From: an uncultured archaeon
GTDB lineage: Archaea > Asgardarchaeota > Thorarchaeia > Thorarchaeales > Thorarchaeaceae
Assembly: GCA_964631415.1 (NCBI GenBank)
Contig: CAZVZC010000016.1
Span: forward strand, 1 to 39,724
Length of the DNA: 39,724 nt
Direction: 5' to 3'
Numbering within the stretch: the stretch's first letter is position 1; every line of letters starts with the position of its first letter. The notes below the pieces were generated by a model. It made no database searches. It worked only from the letters and a program-made list of their open reading frames with translations, and was not told where the DNA came from. Shown piece by piece: positions 2,453-35,084 of this stretch. A program made the position numbers and the translations under genes.

Positions 2453-2944
2453 ATGCCCACGGGGGTCTCGAATGGTTTGACAGCGGCAGGTCAGAAATCG
2501 ACCAGCAGTCAGAAACCAAAGACAAGGGTAGAGGACAAATTCGAGCCCCGAATTCTGGCCTTCTGCTGCAACTGGTGTTCCTATGCAGGTGCAGACCTTG
2601 CAGGCACCAGCCGAATGCAGATGCCTCCGAATATGCGAATCATCAGGGTCAACTGCACCGGACGCATAGACCCCGTCTTTGTTCTTGATGCACTCAACCA
2701 AGGTGCAGACGGCGTGCTCATCTCAGGCTGTCATCCAGGGGACTGCCACTATACAACCGGGAATCTGAAGATGAAGTCACGCTTCGCCCTTCTCCAGAAG
2801 ATGCTTGAGGAGGCAGGCATCGAACCAGAGAGAGTCCATCTTCAGTGGGCGAGCGCAGCAGAAGGCGATGTCTTCACGCAAGGTGTTACATCGATGGTGG
2901 AGCGAATCAAAGCTCTGGGGCCGAATCCCGTAAGGAAGGACTAA
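2453..2944 (+). CDS. mvhD: Methyl-viologen-reducing hydrogenase delta subunit, [2Fe-2S], all-Cys form
   Basis: FCCNWCSYAGADLAG, RVNCTGR, GADGVLISGCHPGDCHY, WASAAEG. The exact start is uncertain. Confidence 0.93.
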   Translation: MPTGVSNGLTAAGQKSTSSQKPKTRVEDKFEPRILAFCCNWCSYAGADLAGTSRMQMPPNMRIIRVNCTGRIDPVFVLDALNQGADGVLISGCHPGDCHYTTGNLKMKSRFALLQKMLEEAGIEPERVHLQWASAAEGDVFTQGVTSMVERIKALGPNPVRKD

Positions 2945-2950
2945 TGAAAG

Positions 2951-3865
2951 ATGACCAAACGCATTGCGCTGGCCCAACTGACCTCATGCTGGGGCTGTGA
3001 TCAGTCACTAGTCGATCTGCATCTTGGACTGTTGAGTGTACTGCCCGAGGTAGAGATAGTCTTTTGGCCTGCAGTAGTCGACTTCAAGTTCAAGGACCTT
3101 GAGTCAATGCCTGACCAGTCGATCCACATTGGGCTTGTGGAGGGAAGCTGCAGGACCGAGGAGGACGTTCACCTACTCAAAGTCATGAGAGAGAAGAGCA
3201 AGACCCTTGTCGCGTGGGGGGTATGTTCATGCTATGGAGGCATTCAGGGTCTCGCGAACCAGTGGAACCTCGAGGAGCTGGTCGACAGGAAGTTCATGAA
3301 GGCGGACACAGTCACCGACCCACGAGTACCCTCTGAGAACGTTCCGGCTTTCATGGAAGCCATACAGCCGAACACTGACATCGTGGAGTTCGATGTCATG
3401 TTGCCCGGGTGTCCTCCAACCAGCAAGAACCTGTTCGATGCTCTCACTGCTCTCATCTCAGGAAAGCCCTTTGACCTTCCTGAGAAGAGCGTGTGTGATC
3501 AGTGTAGTAAGGTGAAACAGGACAAGCACATCAAGGAGTTCCACAGGACTCATGAAGGACACATCGACCCCAGCAAATGCCTCCTCGATCAAGGGTATCT
3601 CTGTCTAGGCTTCGCAACAATAGGGCTCTGTGGGGCTATCTGTCCGAATGTGAACACACCATGTAAGGGATGCTTTGGACCTGTCGTCAGGGTCCGTGAC
3701 CATGGTGCCAAGATCATCTCAGCTCTGGGGGCCATTGCTGAGATGGAGCCTGAGAAACTGAAACAGTCATTCCCAGATCCGATTGGATCGTTCTACTTCA
3801 CGGACTATGCGGCCTCGTACCTCTCGAGGATCCGGACGGAAACGCGGAGGAAGAAGAAGAGATGA
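2951..3865 (+). CDS. vhuG: F420-non-reducing [NiFe(Se)] hydrogenase small subunit
   Basis: SCWGC, VEGS, GVCSCYGG, PGCPP, VCDQC, CLLDQGYLCLG, CPNVNTPCKGCFG. Confidence 0.92.
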   Translation: MTKRIALAQLTSCWGCDQSLVDLHLGLLSVLPEVEIVFWPAVVDFKFKDLESMPDQSIHIGLVEGSCRTEEDVHLLKVMREKSKTLVAWGVCSCYGGIQGLANQWNLEELVDRKFMKADTVTDPRVPSENVPAFMEAIQPNTDIVEFDVMLPGCPPTSKNLFDALTALISGKPFDLPEKSVCDQCSKVKQDKHIKEFHRTHEGHIDPSKCLLDQGYLCLGFATIGLCGAICPNVNTPCKGCFGPVVRVRDHGAKIISALGAIAEMEPEKLKQSFPDPIGSFYFTDYAASYLSRIRTETRRKKKR

Positions 3866-5175
3866 CGGGCGAGAAGACTGTCAAGATATCGCCTGTGACC
3901 AGACTTGAGGGTCATGGTGACATCACCATTAAACTGGGCAAGGACGGAAAGGTGAAAGAGGCCCAGTTCAACATCACGTCCACCCGGTTCTTCGAGAAGT
4001 TCCTTGAGGGGAGGTTTGCAGAGGAAGCACCAAGGTTTGCACCAAGGATATGCGGCATCTGTCCTGAGCCCCATCACTTGGCCTCCGTGAAGGCCGTGGA
4101 GGAGGCGTGGGGCATCACTCCACCTCCTGCGGCTGTGAAAGTGAGAAGGCTTCTGATCAATGCCAAGCAGCTCAGCAGTCATGCACTTCACTTCTTTGCT
4201 CTTGCGGCTCCGGACTTCTTGGTCGGGCCATTTGCAGAGCCTGCAAAGAGAAATCTGGTCACTATAGCCAAGGCCATGCCGGATGTTGGCAAGATGGCCC
4301 TCCAGATGATGCAGTTTGGCCAGGAACTGGCTGCAGCAATTGGTGGAACTGCCATTCATCCTGTGACGGCCATCCCCGGTGGCATGTTGAATCCATTCTC
4401 AGAGGAGAACCGGGACAAGTTCCTGAAACAGATAGGGGACATCAAGCAGTGGACCGCTGACACACTCACATTGGCCAAGAAGATCTTCGAGGACTACTGG
4501 GATGCCATTACCAAGCTCGGAGTAGTCCAGACGTACTATATCGGGACTCACAACAAAGGGGCTCACGAGATATATGATGGCAGTATCAGAGTGATGGACC
4601 CCGATGGCAGCGTTGTGGCCGACATCAAGCCGAAGGACTATCGCAAGTGCTTCGCAGAGTATGTGCCTGAACACTCCTATGCCACGCATGTGTACTACAA
4701 GCCAGTGGGATACCCAGATGGGGTCTGGCGGGCTGGCACTCTTGCGCGCATCAATGTAGTGGACAAGATGGCCACTCCTCTCGCCCAAGAGGCGTTCGAA
4801 GAGATGAGAAACAGACTCGGCCATCCCATCCATGCGACATTCGCATATCATTGGGCCCGGATCGTGGAACTTGTCCAAGCAATGGAAGAAATGGAGCTCC
4901 TGCTGAAGGACCCCCAAATAGTGAGCAAGGACGTCAAGTTGTCAGAGGTCCTGCCGAAGAAGGGCGATGGTGTAGGATGTGTTGAGGCGCCCAGAGGAAC
5001 ACTCATCCATCACTACTGGACCGACGAACAAGGAATCATCACGAAGGCAAACATGATAGTCGCCACAAACAACAATGTCGGCGGCATTGAGAAGACTCTG
5101 ATGGAAGTAGCCAAGCAGGTCTTTGAGCAGAAGACACACCAGAAACTGAAACTGCCCAAACCCATGATAGGCTAG
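3862..5175 (+). CDS. vhuA: [NiFeSe] hydrogenase large subunit lacking the C-terminal metal-binding motif (split VhuA type)
   Basis: TRLEGHG, RICGIC and EAPRGTLIHHY are present. The protein ends KLPKPMIG with no DPCxxC. Confidence 0.93.
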   Translation: MTGEKTVKISPVTRLEGHGDITIKLGKDGKVKEAQFNITSTRFFEKFLEGRFAEEAPRFAPRICGICPEPHHLASVKAVEEAWGITPPPAAVKVRRLLINAKQLSSHALHFFALAAPDFLVGPFAEPAKRNLVTIAKAMPDVGKMALQMMQFGQELAAAIGGTAIHPVTAIPGGMLNPFSEENRDKFLKQIGDIKQWTADTLTLAKKIFEDYWDAITKLGVVQTYYIGTHNKGAHEIYDGSIRVMDPDGSVVADIKPKDYRKCFAEYVPEHSYATHVYYKPVGYPDGVWRAGTLARINVVDKMATPLAQEAFEEMRNRLGHPIHATFAYHWARIVELVQAMEEMELLLKDPQIVSKDVKLSEVLPKKGDGVGCVEAPRGTLIHHYWTDEQGIITKANMIVATNNNVGGIEKTLMEVAKQVFEQKTHQKLKLPKPMIG

Positions 5176-5187
5176 GAGAAAATCAAG

Positions 5188-5340
5188 ATGACGGACGAGA
5201 TACCTGAAGGCGTACTGAACCTCCTTGAGATGGTAGTACGCTGCTATGACTGCTGACTATCGTGCGCCGCTCACATCGTCATAGTGGACGACGAGGGGCG
5301 CGAGATAGCAAGGAGAGAGCTCGTGACTGGCAGTGAATGA
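5188..5340 (+). CDS. vhuU: Selenoprotein VhuU, 50 aa: MTDEIPEGVLNLLEMVVRCYDCULSCAAHIVIVDDEGREIARRELVTGSE
   Basis: AGGAG precedes ATG 5188. In-frame TGA 5254-5256 lies in RxYDx-U-xSCxxH, the motif missing from VhuA. The frame stays open to TGA 5338-5340. Absent from the ORF track. Confidence 0.93.
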
Positions 5341-5374
5341 TGGCATAGTCACAAACCTCTGGACTAAGCCTGAC
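5337..5374 (+). promoter_or_regulatory. Eukaryote-type SECIS element of vhuU
   Basis: AUGAU core, stem GGC(A)UAGUC/GACUA(A)GCC, loop ACAAACCUCUG and 3' core UGAC, about 80 nt downstream of the Sec codon. Confidence 0.82.
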
Positions 5375-5430
5375 AGCCCTCGCAATGGGCTCGCCGGTCG
5401 AAGCTCTCACCACTAGCTCTATTGTCCAAT

Positions 5431-8334
5431 CTACTCAAGGAAGAGAGATACCCTACCAGGAAGAGCAAAACGCGCCTTGTTCTGTGGGTCATTCTGCGGC
5501 TTTTCAGCAGATTGAATCACTATCTCTAGGCCAAGTTCCGACTTCAAGTACTCGACTGAACTCTGCAGCGTTAGGATCTCGTCCTTGGCGCTTGCGGAGT
5601 AGCCCCAGAGCCCATTCTCTTTTGCCATTCGGTCCACTAACATCTTGACCTCTTTGCCATACTGCTTGAAGATGGGGTTTGACATCAAGTGTTTCATGAC
5701 ATCGCCGACAATCATTGGCAGCTTGGCGTTTCGGACGCTATCCATGGCATCAAACATCCATTGAGGCGCTACATAGATGTTGACTCTCTTTGGAGTCTTC
5801 TCCTTCAGAAGCTTCGAAATCTCGCGCACGTCACGTATCGTCGCTTCGACCACCTCCTGCGCTCGTTCTGCCGGCAAATCAATCATCTTCTTGTCCGCCT
5901 TGGGCCATGGCGCAAGAGAAACATACCCTTCATGCTTCATCTTCGACCACAGCTCTTCGCAGATGTGGGGAGCTATAGGGGTAACTAGACGGACCCAGAT
6001 GTCGCATGCGTATGCCATGGCGGCCTCACGCTCTTCCTTCGGCACCTCGGGGCGGTCCACGTACTGACTCACAATACGTTGCATCTCTGATGTCACAAGC
6101 AATGCATAATCCCTGAGCTTGAAGCTGTCAAAGCTCTCTGTACTGTCTTCTACCAGCGAGTTAACCTTGGACAGAAACCACCGGGTCATCATGGCAGGCC
6201 TGTCCTTCTTGGTGTACGCCTTCGGAGTCTTTGTCGCGTACTGCTTGACTGTTTCAATGAACTGAGCAACCCTGTTCTTGACTACAGGTACGTCCCTCTC
6301 GCGCCAGTCCATGAGAGTGCCCGGCTCAGCGGCCGAAATGACATAGGTACGATACACGTCAGCACCATACTTCTTCGGAATCTCCACAAGCGGGATGACA
6401 TTGCCCTTGCTCTTTGACATCTTCATCCCCTCCATGTTCACGTGCTCGTTCAAGCTGATGCATCTCAGCCAGTGCTTTCGCGGAAATATCGCGACATGGT
6501 GAAAGATGGCGAAGCTCAGGTGGTTCGATATGTGTGATGGCGCCGTATGTCGCTGGTCGTTCGGATACCAGTAGAGGAATTCATCGTGCATTGACTTCAG
6601 GAGATCAGTGCTCACACCCGTGTCTTCTGAGACCTTCTTCAGGTCACCCTTGCTCAGGAAAACGTAGTCAAAGAAACTCAATGTCAGCTGCTCTGGCTTC
6701 AGCTTGTTCCCTGTTATCTTATGGGCTATGGTGTAGAACGCCATGTAGATCGTGGAGTCTGACAGTGATTCGATGATCCACTCCTCATCGAAGGGAAGCC
6801 GGGTGCCGATTCCTCGCTTTCTCGCGCAGGGCCTCTGGGTCAGCCAGTCAAAGGTGGCCTCGAAGAGGTTCCTGAAGGTGTTTGGCACAATCTGCATTGA
6901 GTCTAATGCGCTACGTGCCAGATCCTTCCAGCCCGGACTCATGTAGTCCAAGAACCACTGGCCGGCGAAGACACCGACTTGGACATCTGTTCCGCATTTG
7001 CAGACGACAGGCCTCTTATCGGGTTCGTAGAAGACATCAACGCGATTGTTTGACCTCATCCAGTTTACGACATCGTCTTTGACTTCCTTGATTGCCCTGC
7101 CAGAGAACTGACCGCAGTTGTTTCTCATCACACCCTCGTAGAATTCGGCCTTGTAGATCTCTTGGGTGGCCTCCTCCAGCTTCTGAGCCTCTGCCTGTGA
7201 CTTGATACCTCTCTCTTCGACGGTATCTTTGGCTGGAAACTCACTGTATCCCTTGATGTCAATCATGCCGATGATCTTGATACTCCGAACGTCCTCAGGC
7301 GAAATCCCGTATCGCTCTAGGCCTGAGGGATCCTCCCAAAGGTCACGGAGTGCAACATAGTCGAAAGGCGCGTGGCCGGGAACGGAGTAGACCACACCAG
7401 TGGCATTCTGTGGGTCCACAAAGTCAGCTGGCAGGATTGGAATCTCATGCTCGTCATGCACCGCCCGGAACTTCTTGCCAACTATTCTGGCCCCGGGAAA
7501 CGACTCAATCACTTCTACCTTCTTGGCTTGCAGTCTCAGCTTCTCGACTGCTGCGGATGAGATGACCCACTTCTCGCCGTTGACTCGGGCCCACACGTAG
7601 GTTGCATGAGGGTTGATCCACATGTTTGTGACACCAAATATGGTTTCAGGCCGGAGGGTCGCAGGCACTATGAATCCATCTTCGAACCCGAACTTGATCG
7701 CCGTGAACTCCTTGATCTTGGCATCCTCACCCTTCAGCAGGTCGTCCTCTCCGACTGGATTGCCATCGTGAGGGCAGTATAGTAGTGGATAGGAACCTTG
7801 TCGGATGTATCCCTTGTCCATGAACTTGTGATACTGCCATGTCACGAACTTGTTGTAGATCTTATCACCAGTCGTGAACTTCCTACGCCAGTCAATACTG
7901 TAACCAAGGGCCTTGAAGTCGGCAGAGATGGCATCCGCAAAGAACTTGGCCGTCACCCAAGGGTCAGTGAACTTCCGCAGCTGCTCCTCGACTTCCTCCT
8001 CTGTCTTCAGATAGAGTCTCAGGTCTCGCTTATATTGTTCAATCGCATCATGGTCGCCTGCTTTGATCCTCTCCACCATTCCTAGGATTGGTGTGCCGGT
8101 CATATGAGAGGCCATTGGGAACAGTACATTGTATCCCCTCATCCGCTTGTAACGGGCTATCAAATCCCCCACAGTGTATGTCCTGCCATGACCGATGTGC
8201 AAAGCACCATTTGTGTACGGATATGGTACAGTAAGGAAGAACTTGGGCTTGTCGGGGTCGGGGTCCGCTTCGAAGATCTTGTCCCTTTCCCAGCGCTTTT
8301 GCCATTTCCTTTCGATCTCGGCGTATTCACTCAT
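5431..8334 (-). CDS. leuS: Leucine--tRNA ligase (archaeal/eukaryotic type)
   Basis: PYPYTNGALHIGH, ATLRPET, GTGVV-like ATGVVYSVPGHAPFDY, IESLSDSTIYMAFYT, KMSKSKGN. Start moved to MSEYAEIERKW. Confidence 0.97.
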   Translation of the reverse strand: MSEYAEIERKWQKRWERDKIFEADPDPDKPKFFLTVPYPYTNGALHIGHGRTYTVGDLIARYKRMRGYNVLFPMASHMTGTPILGMVERIKAGDHDAIEQYKRDLRLYLKTEEEVEEQLRKFTDPWVTAKFFADAISADFKALGYSIDWRRKFTTGDKIYNKFVTWQYHKFMDKGYIRQGSYPLLYCPHDGNPVGEDDLLKGEDAKIKEFTAIKFGFEDGFIVPATLRPETIFGVTNMWINPHATYVWARVNGEKWVISSAAVEKLRLQAKKVEVIESFPGARIVGKKFRAVHDEHEIPILPADFVDPQNATGVVYSVPGHAPFDYVALRDLWEDPSGLERYGISPEDVRSIKIIGMIDIKGYSEFPAKDTVEERGIKSQAEAQKLEEATQEIYKAEFYEGVMRNNCGQFSGRAIKEVKDDVVNWMRSNNRVDVFYEPDKRPVVCKCGTDVQVGVFAGQWFLDYMSPGWKDLARSALDSMQIVPNTFRNLFEATFDWLTQRPCARKRGIGTRLPFDEEWIIESLSDSTIYMAFYTIAHKITGNKLKPEQLTLSFFDYVFLSKGDLKKVSEDTGVSTDLLKSMHDEFLYWYPNDQRHTAPSHISNHLSFAIFHHVAIFPRKHWLRCISLNEHVNMEGMKMSKSKGNVIPLVEIPKKYGADVYRTYVISAAEPGTLMDWRERDVPVVKNRVAQFIETVKQYATKTPKAYTKKDRPAMMTRWFLSKVNSLVEDSTESFDSFKLRDYALLVTSEMQRIVSQYVDRPEVPKEEREAAMAYACDIWVRLVTPIAPHICEELWSKMKHEGYVSLAPWPKADKKMIDLPAERAQEVVEATIRDVREISKLLKEKTPKRVNIYVAPQWMFDAMDSVRNAKLPMIVGDVMKHLMSNPIFKQYGKEVKMLVDRMAKENGLWGYSASAKDEILTLQSSVEYLKSELGLEIVIQSAEKPQNDPQNKARFALPGRVSLFLE

Positions 8335-13980: not shown

Positions 13981-14057
13981 ACGGCGTGGGACGCGCTGTC
14001 GTTAGGCCCAGCCTCAGCAAGACATTTCTGTTCCAGCTTCAGAGTGAATCATGTTCC

Positions 14058-14822
14058 ATGAACAAGTTCCTCCTAGCCCTTTGTGGGCTCCCTGCTTCGG
14101 GAAAGACAACTCTTGCCAGGGCAGTGCAGACCAAGCTTGGTCCTCGTGCAAAGGTGCAGATAGTGAGTACGGATGAGTGGCGGGACCAACTCTACTATTC
14201 GGAGTTCTCACCTGAAAAGGAGCACGACGTGAGAGAAGCGGCGCTAAAACGTGTCACCGAAACGCTTGCACAAGGGTTCTCGGTGATTCATGATGACACG
14301 AACTACTACGCCAGCATGCGCCACGAACTTCTGGAAGCGGCCAGGACACAAGAATACGCCTTTGCGGTCGCATTCGTGTCCACACCATTGGAAACGTGCC
14401 TCCGGTGGAATCGGGAAAGAAAAGCAGCAGTACCAGAGCATGTGATAGTCAGAATCGGCAGCAATTTCGACAGACCTGGTGACAGATACGCGTGGGACAC
14501 ACCCATCGCGGCAGTGGACTTGTCCAAGGTGCACATCGACGACGCGGCGATGCAGGTCATTCAAAAGCTCAGGGCGCTAAGTCCACCCATTGAGCAGCGT
14601 TCACAGCCGATTGAAACAGATGACAGTGCCATCGATCTTGCCACAAGGGAGGCGGTTTCTCAATTCCTAGGCAAGTTCAGGTCCTACAGATCAGATCCTA
14701 GAGTGCACCAGATACGGAAGAGAGTGCTGTCAGAGTCAGTTGCGGCAGGCGAGTCGCCAGAGCAGGCCAGAAAGCGTCTGACAGCTGAGCTTGAGGAACT
14801 GATAGGCAGTAACTCGAGATGA
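14058..14822 (+). CDS. pstK: O-phosphoseryl-tRNA(Sec) kinase (PSTK/KTI12 family)
   Basis: LCGLPASGKTT, DDTNYYASMR, RWNRER and YAWDTP. Adjacent to tRNA-Sec. Start moved to MNKFLL. Confidence 0.9.
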   Translation: MNKFLLALCGLPASGKTTLARAVQTKLGPRAKVQIVSTDEWRDQLYYSEFSPEKEHDVREAALKRVTETLAQGFSVIHDDTNYYASMRHELLEAARTQEYAFAVAFVSTPLETCLRWNRERKAAVPEHVIVRIGSNFDRPGDRYAWDTPIAAVDLSKVHIDDAAMQVIQKLRALSPPIEQRSQPIETDDSAIDLATREAVSQFLGKFRSYRSDPRVHQIRKRVLSESVAAGESPEQARKRLTAELEELIGSNSR

Positions 14823-14845: not shown

Positions 14846-14936
14846 TGGCGGCCTCCCAAGAGAATCGAACTCTCATCGCTTGCACGATCATGGGTTTGAA
14901 GCCCATGGAACCAGACCACCGGTCCTTTGGGAGGCC
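14846..14936 (-). tRNA. selC: tRNA-Sec (anticodon UCA), 91 nt, CCA encoded
   Basis: 9-bp acceptor stem GGCCUCCCA/UGGGAGGCC, G discriminator plus CCA, 7-bp D stem with 4-nt loop, 6-bp anticodon stem CAUGGG/CCCAUG with loop CUUCAAA, variable arm with GCAA loop, 4-bp T stem AGAG/CUCU with UUCGAUU loop. Confidence 0.97.
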
Positions 14937-14990: not shown

Positions 14991-15641
14991 CTACAGATAG
15001 CGAGTGATGACTGCGTGAGTCTCTTTCTTCCATTCGACTGTCTTCTTTGCCAACTCGGTCGCAATCTCTGCTGGCAGAGGCTTGTCTCTTGGTAACGACT
15101 CGATCTTTGATAACCACGCGTTTGTGGTCAGAGCTATGGGATGAACTTCCTCCCCCTCAGTGGCCTTTATGATCATCTCTCGTCCGAGGGATATGTCGAA
15201 ATAGATCGCACTCAGCTGGGTCTTACTCAGAATCTCAAGGACAGTCCTGTCCCAACAGGTCTTTGCCACTAGGGCTCTTCCAAGCTTACTCTTGTCCTTC
15301 TCCTTAAGACCCTGATACTTATGTAATGAGGACTCTAGCTGCTTGACAAGTCCGTCCATGTAGCTTTTCATTGCAGTTTCGCTCCCCCCGAAGACAGCCA
15401 GCTCAACTGATTTCTGTGCCTCTTCAACCCACACACGCACTGTGACCTTGCTATCGCCAATCTTGGTCGTGAACATAGCCTTGCCCTTGAATATATGACT
15501 CTCTGCCTCGCTGTATTCAGTGAGCAGAGTCCCAGGCGGTGAGGCCACTACGTACCAAGCCATTCTGAAGACGACAGCCGACTCTGAGATGTCATAGCTC
15601 AGGGTGTGGGACACCTTGGGCTGCTTGTCGATCGCTTCCAT
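14991..15641 (-). CDS. Hypothetical protein inside the Sec gene cluster
   Basis: 216-aa ORF with SD GGAGG, 24 nt downstream of sepSecS and co-oriented with it. No family recognised. Confidence 0.8.
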   Translation of the reverse strand: MEAIDKQPKVSHTLSYDISESAVVFRMAWYVVASPPGTLLTEYSEAESHIFKGKAMFTTKIGDSKVTVRVWVEEAQKSVELAVFGGSETAMKSYMDGLVKQLESSLHKYQGLKEKDKSKLGRALVAKTCWDRTVLEILSKTQLSAIYFDISLGREMIIKATEGEEVHPIALTTNAWLSKIESLPRDKPLPAEIATELAKKTVEWKKETHAVITRYL

Positions 15642-15665: not shown

Positions 15666-16982
15666 TCATGATAGGCTGTCTAGTGCCCTATTGAGCTTAG
15701 TGGTGGCCTCCTCCACGTCTTTCCTACTCGTGCCAATCGCGGCATTCATCACTAGATAGCTGTGAGGATAGCCGTCAATCGAAGAACCGTATTCGCCCTT
15801 CCTGATGGCTCTCGGACCAGTCACCCTTAGACTGTATAGCCTTGACCCGACCTCCGTAGCATCGAGTCCGTCCAGAGTAATCGCGCATGACACTGGGTTT
15901 CTTACAGAGAGTACTCTCTGACCTATGCCTTCCGCAACCGATTTCAGTCTGTCCTCCAGAAGGGCACGATTCTCTGCCTGTTCCTTTCTGAGCTGGCTGT
16001 ATCCATCATGCCCGATGACAAGAAGTGCAGCGAGGGTCTGAACAAGAGGAGCGGCGGTCGCTCGGCCCGCATAAGTTTCCGCAGTCCATTCCACCACCTT
16101 GTCGTCTGGTGAAACGATGATTGAGCCGCCGACCGGACACAGGAAGTTCTTGTCACTGCTCTGGACGACAGCATCCACACGACCTGCATCGACTGCCGAC
16201 CGTATGGACCTCAAGACCTCTTCGGACTGCACTCCATAGGCGTTGTTAACCACAAGTGGCAGGTCTTTCTCAGCACAAATCTTGGCTACGTCCTTAACTG
16301 GATCTGACTCTCGAGGAGGAAAGAACGTCGTCGTCAGCAGGACTGCAGAGCCTCTGTGTTTCGACACGAGCCGCTCCAGCCCGCCCATATCAACCCGTAC
16401 TGCATCTCCCTCGAGTATTGTGGGCACAACTACCTCCGTGAGCCCGGCAAATGCTATGGCTCGATGAGGAGAAGTATGATCGACGCGAGGAAAGAGGACC
16501 TCCCGGCAGCCAATCTCTCTCCTCATTCCTGCCAATACAAGTGCGATACTCATCCCGGTCGACAACGGCGTGACGAGGCCATGATGTATGTTTTCCAGTC
16601 CGAGCTTCCGGACTGCATCGACTGCAACACTGTCAACGAGTTCCTGCATTAGTGAGGAACCGACAGCTTTTGGCTGAGTGGCGGTGATGTGACCACTGCG
16701 TCCAATCCCATGGTTGAAGCCAGATGACAGACGAGAGATTAGAGGAGAGGCAGTCCGTCCCTCCCGTTCACCAACCCTTGAGCCCTCAGGGTCCTTGTCA
16801 GAGTCCATTGAGGACAGCAGTTGAAGCAAAAGATCAACCTGTAGATCAGAGAGAGGTTTCACCGGGAACATCCTTCTGTTCAGCACGTCCTTCACTGGTG
16901 CCAACAGGGCGTCAATTGTCACTCGGCCTCGCTCAGCTAAGTTCTCAGGTATCAGATCGGTAAGCTTGCGCTCAATGTCCAA
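15666..16982 (-). CDS. spcS: O-phosphoseryl-tRNA(Sec) selenium transferase (SepSecS)
   Basis: VGEREGR, HGIGRSG, QPKAVGS, NNAYG, QSSDKNF (PLP lysine) and YAGRA. Confidence 0.96.
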   Translation of the reverse strand: MDIERKLTDLIPENLAERGRVTIDALLAPVKDVLNRRMFPVKPLSDLQVDLLLQLLSSMDSDKDPEGSRVGEREGRTASPLISRLSSGFNHGIGRSGHITATQPKAVGSSLMQELVDSVAVDAVRKLGLENIHHGLVTPLSTGMSIALVLAGMRREIGCREVLFPRVDHTSPHRAIAFAGLTEVVVPTILEGDAVRVDMGGLERLVSKHRGSAVLLTTTFFPPRESDPVKDVAKICAEKDLPLVVNNAYGVQSEEVLRSIRSAVDAGRVDAVVQSSDKNFLCPVGGSIIVSPDDKVVEWTAETYAGRATAAPLVQTLAALLVIGHDGYSQLRKEQAENRALLEDRLKSVAEGIGQRVLSVRNPVSCAITLDGLDATEVGSRLYSLRVTGPRAIRKGEYGSSIDGYPHSYLVMNAAIGTSRKDVEEATTKLNRALDSLS

Positions 16983-18366
16983 ACTTGTACTCCTCCTCGA
17001 CTGTCGTTTCGTACATCACCATGTCCCCCACCCTCACAGGCCCGTCAAATTGAGCAGACAAGACTCCTCGTGTTCCAAACGGTTGAGCGAGAAGCCCCTC
17101 TCGTCCAGTGTTTGTCCTAACAGAAGAACCGACTAGGGTTTCAGCAGTCTCCTTCCTCGACGCAAGCCCTTCAACAAGTACGTCAGCAGGCCTGACTCGG
17201 GAAACCCTTCCGGAACGAACGTGTTTCTTGGCAAGAATCATCTTGTTGGGAATGTCCACAATCTCTCCTGAACCAATGATGCGCATTTGAGTCGGAGGCA
17301 AGTCTGTCCGCATTAGTAGAACACGCATACCAGTTTCTGCCACCACCTCTCGTTGAAGCAACACTGCCGTATGACTCATCGGGCCTTCAACACTGTCCTC
17401 AACAACTCGAGTAATGCCTTCGGTCCTAAACGGCACCAACTCGGCTGTCACACTCGGCATTCCGATTGTTGCACTTACGACCATTCCCTTCGTGAGTCGC
17501 CCGCGGTACAGCGGGTTGGGTCTAATCTGTAGGATTGCCCCGGTGGCAGTCCTTACAGAGCCCGGCTTGCACAGATAGTCCCCTCGGCTCATAGTTGCAG
17601 ATTCCAGGTCGGGAATGTTCAACCCCACCCGGTCACCTGCGCCTGCGTTCTCTCGCGGCTCGCCGAAGGTCTGGATGGACCGTATCTTTCCTATCTGCCC
17701 CTGAGGCATGAGTCCGAGTGAATCGCCAATCTCTGCGACTCCTCTGAGAACCGTTCCAGTGACGACGGTACCGTGACCCTTCACACTGAAGGCATGATCA
17801 ACGGGCATCAGGAAGGGAGCGTCCCTCATTCTTGGCTTTGGCGTCACTGTTGTCGCCATGACCTCTCGGAGCCTATCAATGCCATCTCCAGTCAGTGCCG
17901 AAACTCTCACGTACTCCACCTTGTTGAAAGAGAGGTCGGCTATGATGGATCTCATCTTGCTCTCAACAGATGTCTGTTGTTTCTCGTCGGCAAGGTCGAT
18001 CTTTGAGATGACGATGATGATGGTCTCAACACCCATGGACTGCAGTACAATTAGGTGCTCGCCGGTCTGTAATTTCGGACCTTCGTCCGCCGCAACAACG
18101 ACAAGAGCTGCGTCGATGATCCCCGCACCGGCGACGACACTACGTATGAGATCGGCATGACCAGGGGAGTCCACCAAGGTCACAAGATACTTGCCCAGCA
18201 CGAACATGGTGAACCCAAGGTCTATGGTTATCCCGCGCTCCTGGGACTGTGGATGCTTGTCAAGACCTGCGGTAGACACCTTCTGACTCAGGGCTCTTGC
18301 GAGCTGAGTCTTGCCGTGATCGATGTGCCCCATGAGGCCCACGTGAATCGGTACAAGGCGCTCCAT
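16972..18366 (-). CDS. selB: Selenocysteine-specific elongation factor (archaeal/eukaryal SelB/EFSec)
   Basis: GHIDHGKT, ERGITIDLGF, DSPGHADL, QTGEHL and DHAFSVKGHGTV. C-terminal domain IV (G..AQPFGTRG) instead of bacterial winged helices. Confidence 0.95.
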   Translation of the reverse strand: MERLVPIHVGLMGHIDHGKTQLARALSQKVSTAGLDKHPQSQERGITIDLGFTMFVLGKYLVTLVDSPGHADLIRSVVAGAGIIDAALVVVAADEGPKLQTGEHLIVLQSMGVETIIIVISKIDLADEKQQTSVESKMRSIIADLSFNKVEYVRVSALTGDGIDRLREVMATTVTPKPRMRDAPFLMPVDHAFSVKGHGTVVTGTVLRGVAEIGDSLGLMPQGQIGKIRSIQTFGEPRENAGAGDRVGLNIPDLESATMSRGDYLCKPGSVRTATGAILQIRPNPLYRGRLTKGMVVSATIGMPSVTAELVPFRTEGITRVVEDSVEGPMSHTAVLLQREVVAETGMRVLLMRTDLPPTQMRIIGSGEIVDIPNKMILAKKHVRSGRVSRVRPADVLVEGLASRKETAETLVGSSVRTNTGREGLLAQPFGTRGVLSAQFDGPVRVGDMVMYETTVEEEYKFGH

Positions 18367-20777: not shown

Positions 20778-21788
20778 CTATGTTGGCAGGCGTCTCTGGA
20801 CTGCCCTGTCACGTGGTGTTAAGACAGGTCCTCTAGAGAAGTCGAATAGGACACGGTCTTCTCGACCACTCCTCAGCCTGAGACTGTGAGAGTCATCGAC
20901 ATGCCCAATCGATGCAATCTCCATGCCGTGATCCCAGACTATCTGTGAAACACGATGGACATTCTTCTCTCGGAGGGACACCAGAAAGCCTAGAGAGATG
21001 TACATCCGGATCCAGTCTTCCAGCTCAATGGAGTCGGGACTGGTGTTCTTGACAGCGTCCATGTCGATATATCCGCCCATGTCGGAGTACTCGAGCATCA
21101 TTCCTGTTGTCCCAACGAGCCCTGCCACGGAAACATCCTTCGAAGCACTGAGGACGTGCGCCCCTGCGAGAGTATTCATAGTAGACAGCCGATCCACGAC
21201 CGATTCTGAAGGTGCATCCGAAACACAGTCCCAGCCCAGCTTATAGCTGGATCCTCGCTTGCCATTCCTGTCATATATCAGCATAATCACGTCGTCAGGC
21301 TGGGCCCCCCCAGACGTCAGCAGGTCGCGCTTCTTGACCTTTCCAACCGCAGACCCAACAACATATGTGGTCCCGGAACGCGGGTTCGTGTGGCCACGGA
21401 CTATGGGAACCCTGAACTTGTTAGAACCATCAATCAGACCCTGAAGAAGCATGTTTCCGATTTGGGAATCGGAGTATGAGAGTGCAATGGCAAAGGAGTT
21501 GGGAACACCGCCTGCGGCATAAATGTCCATGACATTTGCGAGGACAACGTTGAAGCCTGCCGCTCGAGGATAGTGCAGGCATAGCTCCTCAACAATCGAA
21601 TCTGTCGTGAGGAGCATGACCTCGTCCCTTTCCATTTCGATGACTGCCGAGTCTTCGCCCAGCGAGTGAGGAAGACCACCCCTGTACGACTCTTCCCGGA
21701 GTCTAGTCAGAATCTGGGGCAATACGTACTTCCGTGATATGCCATCAAAGTCATGCAGGACACGGACAAACTCGTCAAGAGGCTTCAA
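20778..21788 (-). CDS. AIR synthase/SelD-superfamily protein (methanogenesis marker 2 / COG2144-like)
   Basis: FDGISRK, GEDSAVI, NVMDIYAAGG, VPIVRGHT and KDVSVAGLVGT..MLEYS. Confidence 0.8.
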   Translation of the reverse strand: MKPLDEFVRVLHDFDGISRKYVLPQILTRLREESYRGGLPHSLGEDSAVIEMERDEVMLLTTDSIVEELCLHYPRAAGFNVVLANVMDIYAAGGVPNSFAIALSYSDSQIGNMLLQGLIDGSNKFRVPIVRGHTNPRSGTTYVVGSAVGKVKKRDLLTSGGAQPDDVIMLIYDRNGKRGSSYKLGWDCVSDAPSESVVDRLSTMNTLAGAHVLSASKDVSVAGLVGTTGMMLEYSDMGGYIDMDAVKNTSPDSIELEDWIRMYISLGFLVSLREKNVHRVSQIVWDHGMEIASIGHVDDSHSLRLRSGREDRVLFDFSRGPVLTPRDRAVQRRLPT

Positions 21789-21817
21789 AGATGATCACTC
21801 TGGTGGACAATCTCGAA

Positions 21818-34985: not shown

Positions 34986-35084
34986 ATTAGCTTCAGAGTT
35001 CTGGTTTCTCCACCACCGTCGACAAGACTTGATTGCGAAACAAAGCCGCATCAATCTTTGAGCATGATAACTGAGGATCAAGAG

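Follow-up and report, generated by a model that had tools for sequence, protein, structure and literature searches.

The vhuU gene of an uncultured thorarchaeon carries two in-frame UGA codons, one in the middle of the gene, apparently read as selenocysteine (Sec), and one at its end. The second lies inside what looks like the core of the SECIS itself. Such a stop codon offers an example from nature of a single mRNA in which UGA has two meanings, and raises the questions of what the element is, how far it extends and why its own UGA should not be recoded. These questions reach beyond the locus; the Asgard SECIS has been proposed to connect the selenocysteine system of archaea with that of eukaryotes.

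The window, by which we mean the whole stretch of DNA analysed (39,724 nucleotides), contains the host operon in the order mvhD/vhuD-vhuG-vhuA, followed by vhuU. The operon was recognized by Pfam matches (FlpD, Oxidored_q6 and NiFeSe_Hases) and vhuU by translation with TGA read as U:

2552-2920, forward strand: mvhD/vhuD, Cys-type, carrying the FlpD domain
2951-3865, forward strand: vhuG (Pfam match from the same set)
3862-5175, forward strand: truncated vhuA (Pfam match from the same set), without the C-terminal Ni-ligand motif
5188-5340, forward strand: vhuU, 50 codons, 12 bases past the vhuA stop
5254-5256, forward strand: Sec codon UGA of vhuU, in frame in all orthologs, with Cys (TGT) at the aligned position in the Cys-type ortholog L035

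The nearest relatives of VhuA are found in Candidatus Thorarchaeota MAGs (96%, 83% and 81% identity). The C-terminal Ni-ligand motif missing from the truncated VhuA, YDC-U-LSCAAH, is supplied by vhuU. No TGA lies in frame in the mvhD/vhuD gene here, which is Cys-type; several vhuD copies with two Sec codons occur in Loki-type genomes.

Genes for the Sec machinery are present in the same window, clustered between 13986 and 18366:

13986-14822, forward strand: PSTK-like kinase (Pfam KTI12/AAA_33)
14850-14936, reverse strand: tRNA-Sec (Rfam tRNA-Sec, 63 bits)
15666-16982, reverse strand: SepSecS (Pfam SepSecS)
16972-18366, reverse strand: aSelB (Pfam aSelB_III)

An ORF of 216 aa lying between SepSecS and tRNA-Sec (14991-15641, reverse strand) has no Pfam match. 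An AIRS_C-like ORF (20778-21794, reverse strand) was considered as selD and rejected, since it lacks a Sec motif; the actual Sec-type selD of this genome is on contig C11.

An earlier reading, made from the sequence only, had placed at the 3′ end of vhuU a eukaryote-type SECIS, described as a 38-nt hairpin (5337-5374) with a tandem G.A core built on the stop codon, a 9-position stem and an AAA loop, and starting about 80 nt past the Sec codon. Each of these parts was recovered. The AUGA motif (5337-5340) includes the in-frame stop UGA 5338-5340 and begins 81 nt past the Sec UGA. It faces the UGAC at 5371-5374, placing G5339 opposite A5373 and A5340 opposite G5372 as tandem G.A pairs. After U5341, positions 5342-5350 pair with 5362-5370 through eight Watson-Crick pairs and one A.A mismatch, and the stem is capped by an 11-nt loop at 5351-5361 (ACAAACCUCUG). 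This loop opens with ACAAA and closes with G; in the family alignment its adenines A38 and A39 are invariant and the final G is nearly so. The hairpin is thus present as described, but it is only the central part of a larger structure of about 94 nt and three helices, presented below.

We then compared the 3′ ends of Sec-type vhuU from across the Asgard phylum, 46 of which are distinct. These orthologs have 49-54 codons, with TGA at the matching position. In 45 of the 46 the stop codon is the core UGA. An NUGA core and a 3′ GA or AA are present in all 46 without exception, and in 37 sequences a rigid parse recovers at least 7 stem pairs. The core reads AUGA in 41 cases, UUGA in 3 and CUGA in 2; on the 3′ side, 37 sequences have GA and 9 have AA. 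The spacing between the Sec and stop UGA codons is also nearly constant (84 nt in 43 sequences, 96 nt in the other 3). The sole vhuU ending in UAA, L080 (G113:C14), has its AUGA hairpin 25 nt downstream.

Closer relatives allow the pairing itself to be followed. The 22 sequences of the Thorarchaeota family never differ in AUGA, GAC or two of the loop adenines, but vary freely in the stem. Pairing is maintained in 90% of cells, compared to 26-48% when partners are slid along the alignment. Compensatory changes affect 14 of 21 pairs, and none of 500 shuffles attains the observed scores. The sequence-only reading had named stem covariation and stop/core overlap in Asgard vhuU 3′ ends as the features on which it could be judged, and both were found. 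A covariance model built from the family vhuU alignment (model R1) gives a single match in the window (5316-5419, 78 bits) and also detects the vhuU SECIS of distant Asgard clades. The Cys-type vhuU L035 (G319:C63; DCC-LSC, with Phe replacing the conserved His of the motif) provides a natural negative control: R1 does not match it and, by eye, no AUGA hairpin lies past its stop.

How much of this could be expected by chance? Folded by itself (5325-5385), the hairpin is not unusually stable (z -0.89). A rigid AUGA/9-bp/AA-loop/GA pattern has 7 matches in the 2.16-Mb genome, that is about 3 per 10,000 of its 23,891 AUGA sites, and 5-7 matches in shuffled genomes; the pattern alone therefore does not discriminate. 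The non-random features are the position on the stop of a Sec gene, the conservation with compensatory changes and the stability of the whole element. The entire 101-nt stretch folds into the three-helix shape with an MFE of -45.7 kcal/mol (z -4.48), and none of 200 shuffles was as stable. A scan of the whole window at Rfam gathering thresholds returned no SECIS family. When 5100-5500 was scanned permissively, the sole match was SECIS_1 (RF00031), aligned on AUGA and GA at 14.5 bits (E 7.9), below the gathering score of 35. The element appears to behave like a eukaryotic SECIS, yet stands outside the family modelled by Rfam.

Together, the invariant core, the covarying stem and the stop/core overlap in orthologs and in selD (below) support the proposed eukaryote-like SECIS with a stop in its core. 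We consider it very probable that the element is the Asgard-type SECIS of the vhuU mRNA, about 94 nt long, with the stop codon in its K-turn, and that it directs reading of UGA 5254-5256 as Sec.

The full element, as given by the MFE fold and RNAalifold, is a three-helix junction at 5315-5408. Its parts are:

5315-5321 (outer) and 5324-5331 (inner), forward strand: 5′ arms of the closing helix H1, in the last vhuU codons (MFE fold and RNAalifold)
5334-5341, forward strand: bulged strand of the putative K-turn, with U5334 and G5335 in the C-stem, A5336-A5337-U5338 as bulge, the purines G5339 and A5340, and U5341
5342-5370, forward strand: SECIS upper helix H2 and apical loop (RNAalifold; 92.9% of cells paired, compensatory changes at 7 of 9 pairs)
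5371-5374, forward strand: non-bulged strand of the putative K-turn, UGAC, with U5371 facing U5341, G5372.A5340, A5373.G5339 and C5374-G5335
5375-5391, forward strand: H3, the third helix, carried by the non-bulged strand, small, rich in G+C and capped by a GCAA-type loop (RNAalifold)
5393-5400 (inner) and 5402-5408 (outer), forward strand: 3′ arms of H1 (MFE fold and RNAalifold)

The RNAalifold consensus of the 22 family vhuU sequences recovers all three helices. Compensatory changes are found at 6 of the 8 pairs of the inner H1 helix. H3 occupies the 3′ strand between GA and H1, has a loop of GCAA/GCGA type, and was predicted separately in vhuU and selD.

We compared the core with the K-turn and k-junction motifs described by the Lilley laboratory (PMC4005666, PMC10573300). 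At the sequence level it has the features of a standard K-turn: the G5335-C5374 pair, the bulge AAU, then G5339.A5373 and A5340.G5372. Both G5335 and C5374 are invariant in the family alignment. The bulge-flanking pair is G-C in 45 of the 46 vhuU sequences, C-G in selD, and G-C, U-A or U.G in vhuD. From this we infer a canonical K-turn with a 3-nt bulge at the core, in which the stop codon would provide bulge nucleotide L3 and the two purines of the sheared pairs. In a k-junction, by definition (PMC10573300), a third helix leaves the non-bulged strand immediately at the K-turn. The element described here resembles it in having an extra helix on that strand, and differs in that a C-stem of 1-2 bp parts H3 from the G.A pairs. 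As H3 begins 1-2 nt past GA, the k-junction label is uncertain, and the structure may rather be a K-turn beside a junction than a true k-junction.

The same organization is found after other Sec genes. The Sec-type selD of this genome (contig C11) ends with CCG-UGA, its stop being at 35041-35043 on the reverse strand; a hairpin of type II comes next, and then GA. In all 30 family orthologs (L092-L121) the selD stop is the core UGA (G/A-UGA). RNAalifold, run independently on selD, again gave three helices, with 97.5% of cells paired; H3 is paired in 100% of cells with compensatory changes at 3 of 4 pairs, and H1 has compensatory changes as well. Model R1, built on vhuU, missed the SECIS of selD, but the model is so gene-specific that this is not informative about selD. 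Nine Sec-type vhuD SECIS were found in Loki-type and other Asgard genomes (L142-L152), and equivalents of H1 and H3 are present in six of the nine, the six whose flanks were read by eye. The three-helix design appears to be common to vhuU, selD and vhuD across Asgard clades.

The vhuD elements checked by eye mostly follow a separate stop, as does that of L080, so that the overlap of stop and core is not obligatory for function. This bears on why the overlap persists. It could be a by-product of compaction without regulatory meaning, in which the in-frame UGA of an abutting SECIS simply becomes the stop. Such an explanation is compatible with the SECIS identity of the element and differs only on the reason why the overlap is kept. 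The separate stops of vhuD and L080 would fit it, as would the stop usage of the genome, where TGA is the most frequent stop (51% of long frames), and the lack of room at this locus: only 90 nt separate vhuU from the convergent leuS, and the three-helix element almost fills them. What makes us regard compaction as rather unlikely is that the overlap has been kept in frame in 45 of 46 vhuU genes, from varied clades and base compositions, and in 30 of 30 selD genes.

A second structure lies within the coding region:

5257-5308, forward strand: strong hairpin directly past the Sec codon (MFE -35.4 kcal/mol, z -5.57)

In 20 family sequences, 94.7% of its cells are paired, versus 29-57% when partners are slid, and double changes occur at 3 pairs. 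One pair alternates between C-G, G-U and G-C, an Ala/Gly change being matched by a synonymous Gly change. In position it resembles the bacterial SECIS and the eukaryotic Sec redefinition element. Sec insertion might then be due to this hairpin, in a bacteria-like manner, and the structure at the 3′ end would be a transcript-end element (terminator or 3′ stabilizer). The stability of the Sec-proximal hairpin and its maintenance in the family agree with this possibility, and pyrimidine/T-rich tracts do follow H1 in many orthologs. However, it is the 3′ element that is universal, with invariant AUGA, GA and loop adenines, whereas no phylum-wide consensus structure was obtained for the Sec-proximal hairpin. 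Its mean z is -4.9 in the Thorarchaeota family against -1.4 elsewhere; the excess stability is absent in Loki-type sequences, and the hairpin is weak or missing in several other clades too. The same core moreover follows selD and vhuD, whose Sec codons are distant, and the Cys-type L035 gives no match to model R1. We thus judge a transcript-end role very improbable, and the Sec-proximal hairpin to be specific to the Thorarchaeota family.

The element can be placed among known SECIS types. The euryarchaeal SECIS of the Methanococcus type, located in the 3′ UTR, is made of two G+C-rich stems parted by a GAA_A bulge. With the eukaryotic SECIS (RF00031), the vhuU element shares the AUGA...GA non-Watson-Crick core, the unpaired loop adenines and a helix I below the internal loop; like it, it would act from afar on an upstream UGA and obey a minimal-spacing rule. 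It differs from it by a shorter upper helix, by the overlap with coding region and stop and by the additional hairpin on the 3′ strand. Closest to it are the Asgard elements already described. The lokiSECIS reported by Mariotti et al. (2016, Mol Biol Evol 33:2441, PMC4989117) has a core of AUGA and GA (AA in VhuU) and, between them, a stem of 9 bp and an A-rich loop of 11 nt whose last base is G. The element studied here is like that of Lokiarchaeota VhuU.1 in its AUGA, its stem of about 9 bp, its 11-nt A-rich loop ending in G and its location at the vhuU 3′ end. It differs by GA in place of AA on the 3′ side in the Thorarchaeota-like vhuU, and by a spacing from AUGA to GA of 31 nt instead of the 29 nt of Loki-type sequences.

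Huang, Xiao and Zhang (2024, ISME J 18:wrae111, PMC11227280) catalogued Thorarchaeia frhA/vhuU and selD elements and noted frequent overlap between UGA stops and the AUGA motif. Their type I eSECIS-like model has a GA_[G/A]A core, a 7-15 bp upper stem tolerating up to 2 mismatches and a loop of 8-20 nt. The element fits this model: AUGA (5337-5340) and GA (5372-5373) flank the upper stem in the form (A/G)UGA...(G/A)A, the upper stem has 9 positions with 1 mismatch (7-15 bp and at most 2 mismatches being allowed), and the apical loop of 11 nt (8-20 nt allowed) opens with unpaired adenines. It is located at the 3′ end of a gene with a Sec UGA, in a genome with Sec machinery and a Sec-type selD (contig C11), and its structure is conserved with compensatory changes in orthologs. 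The lower-stem pairs given in the same text (frhA [U/C]GG_C[C/U][A/G]; selD G[A/U]G_C[U/A]C) match H1 here (CUGGC/GCCGG) and in selD (GAGACCG/CGGUCUC). In its main text the region between core and lower stem is an internal loop, with no third helix or three-way junction described, and its supplementary text, as far as available, does not contain the exact sequence of the window.

The stop-in-core layout is therefore not new. Both it and its rationale, namely the argument that a stop so near the SECIS cannot be recoded, by analogy with the eukaryotic minimal distance (PMC4989117), are already known for Asgard archaea from these 2016 and 2024 reports. The call made by the sequence-only reading was right, and the locus is one further well-supported example. 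What is added is structural: the 3-nt-bulge K-turn, the closing helix in coding sequence, the third hairpin and the family-specific hairpin at the Sec codon. The main text of PMC4989117 mentions neither a closing helix nor a 3-nt-bulge K-turn nor a third hairpin. More widely, neither the main texts of the two reports nor a wider search of literature text gave a third hairpin, a three-way junction or a 3-nt-bulge reading. These additions are targets for functional tests. They also raise the question of which K-turn-binding protein replaces SBP2, which was found in neither Lokiarchaeota nor other archaea according to PMC4989117.

How, then, could the two UGA codons be distinguished? The element, consisting of the closing helix (last vhuU codons and 3′ UTR), the K-turn, the 9-position helix beyond U.U with its A-rich loop and the third hairpin, would bring aSelB and Sec-tRNA(Sec) to UGA 5254-5256 for it to be read as selenocysteine. 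While the Sec codon is being decoded, the element would lie some 60 nt ahead, outside the ribosome, folded and able to offer its K-turn and A-rich loop to the Sec-insertion factors. Once the ribosome arrives at UGA 5338-5340, the 5′ arm of H1 would be unwound, the A site would hold the core, and the entry channel the 5′ arm of H2. No SECIS would exist while the ribosome is on the terminal UGA, so that the release factor would prevail and the codon be read as stop. Escape of the terminal UGA by zero spacing and by melting of the element by the ribosome, as the sequence-only reading suggested, is plausible by analogy with the eukaryotic spacing rule.

The alternative that the terminal UGA is partly recoded can be stated precisely. 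Translation of the frame in silico gives the predicted read-through product, Sec plus 8 residues followed by UAA 5365-5367, and a second protein of this kind would arise from an mRNA that carries a SECIS and has an extension frame open for 8 codons. Other [NiFe] hydrogenases suggest, by analogy, that the tail is cleaved off during maturation, which could make an extension tolerable. Yet neither its length nor its sequence is conserved (in L001, 96% identical, the next in-frame stop comes 11 codons on), and the core would be unable to fold inside the A site. Partial recoding therefore seems to us highly unlikely, and reading of the terminal UGA as stop is retained.

If termination unfolds the element, it would have a further consequence. 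While one ribosome occupies the stop, another trailing it by 84 nt would be unable to decode Sec; each terminating ribosome would unfold the element, so that Sec could be decoded 84 nt upstream only with the last ~25 codons free of ribosomes. We put forward, tentatively and as a conjecture that we would not yet call probable, that a three-way junction some 90 nt long is the general form of the Asgard SECIS, recurring with vhuU, selD and vhuD in Thor-, Loki- and other Asgard lineages, and that termination is coupled to the next recoding event. If so, a three-way junction would replace the published hairpin with internal loop, its third helix would be capped by a GNRA-type loop, and the stop codon would correspond to K-turn positions L3-1b-2b.

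Several minor observations concern the locus and its relatives. At 15 of the 30 best-matching family vhuA loci (L018-L028, L030, L033, L041, L043) the vhuU motif scan was negative; downstream sequence was read for 7 of these 15 and shows no adjoining vhuU, and some others run into a contig end. In hydrogenases with the DPCxxCxxH motif, Pro is usual at the residue where vhuU has Cys before Sec. This Cys always precedes Sec (Y/F-D-C-U), in the window (5248-5256) as in all 46 orthologs. Finally, the leuS ORF ends at 5431, 23 nt past the outer arm of H1 (5409-5431 lying between); with the convergent gene ending so close to H1, both transcripts must terminate nearly back to back.
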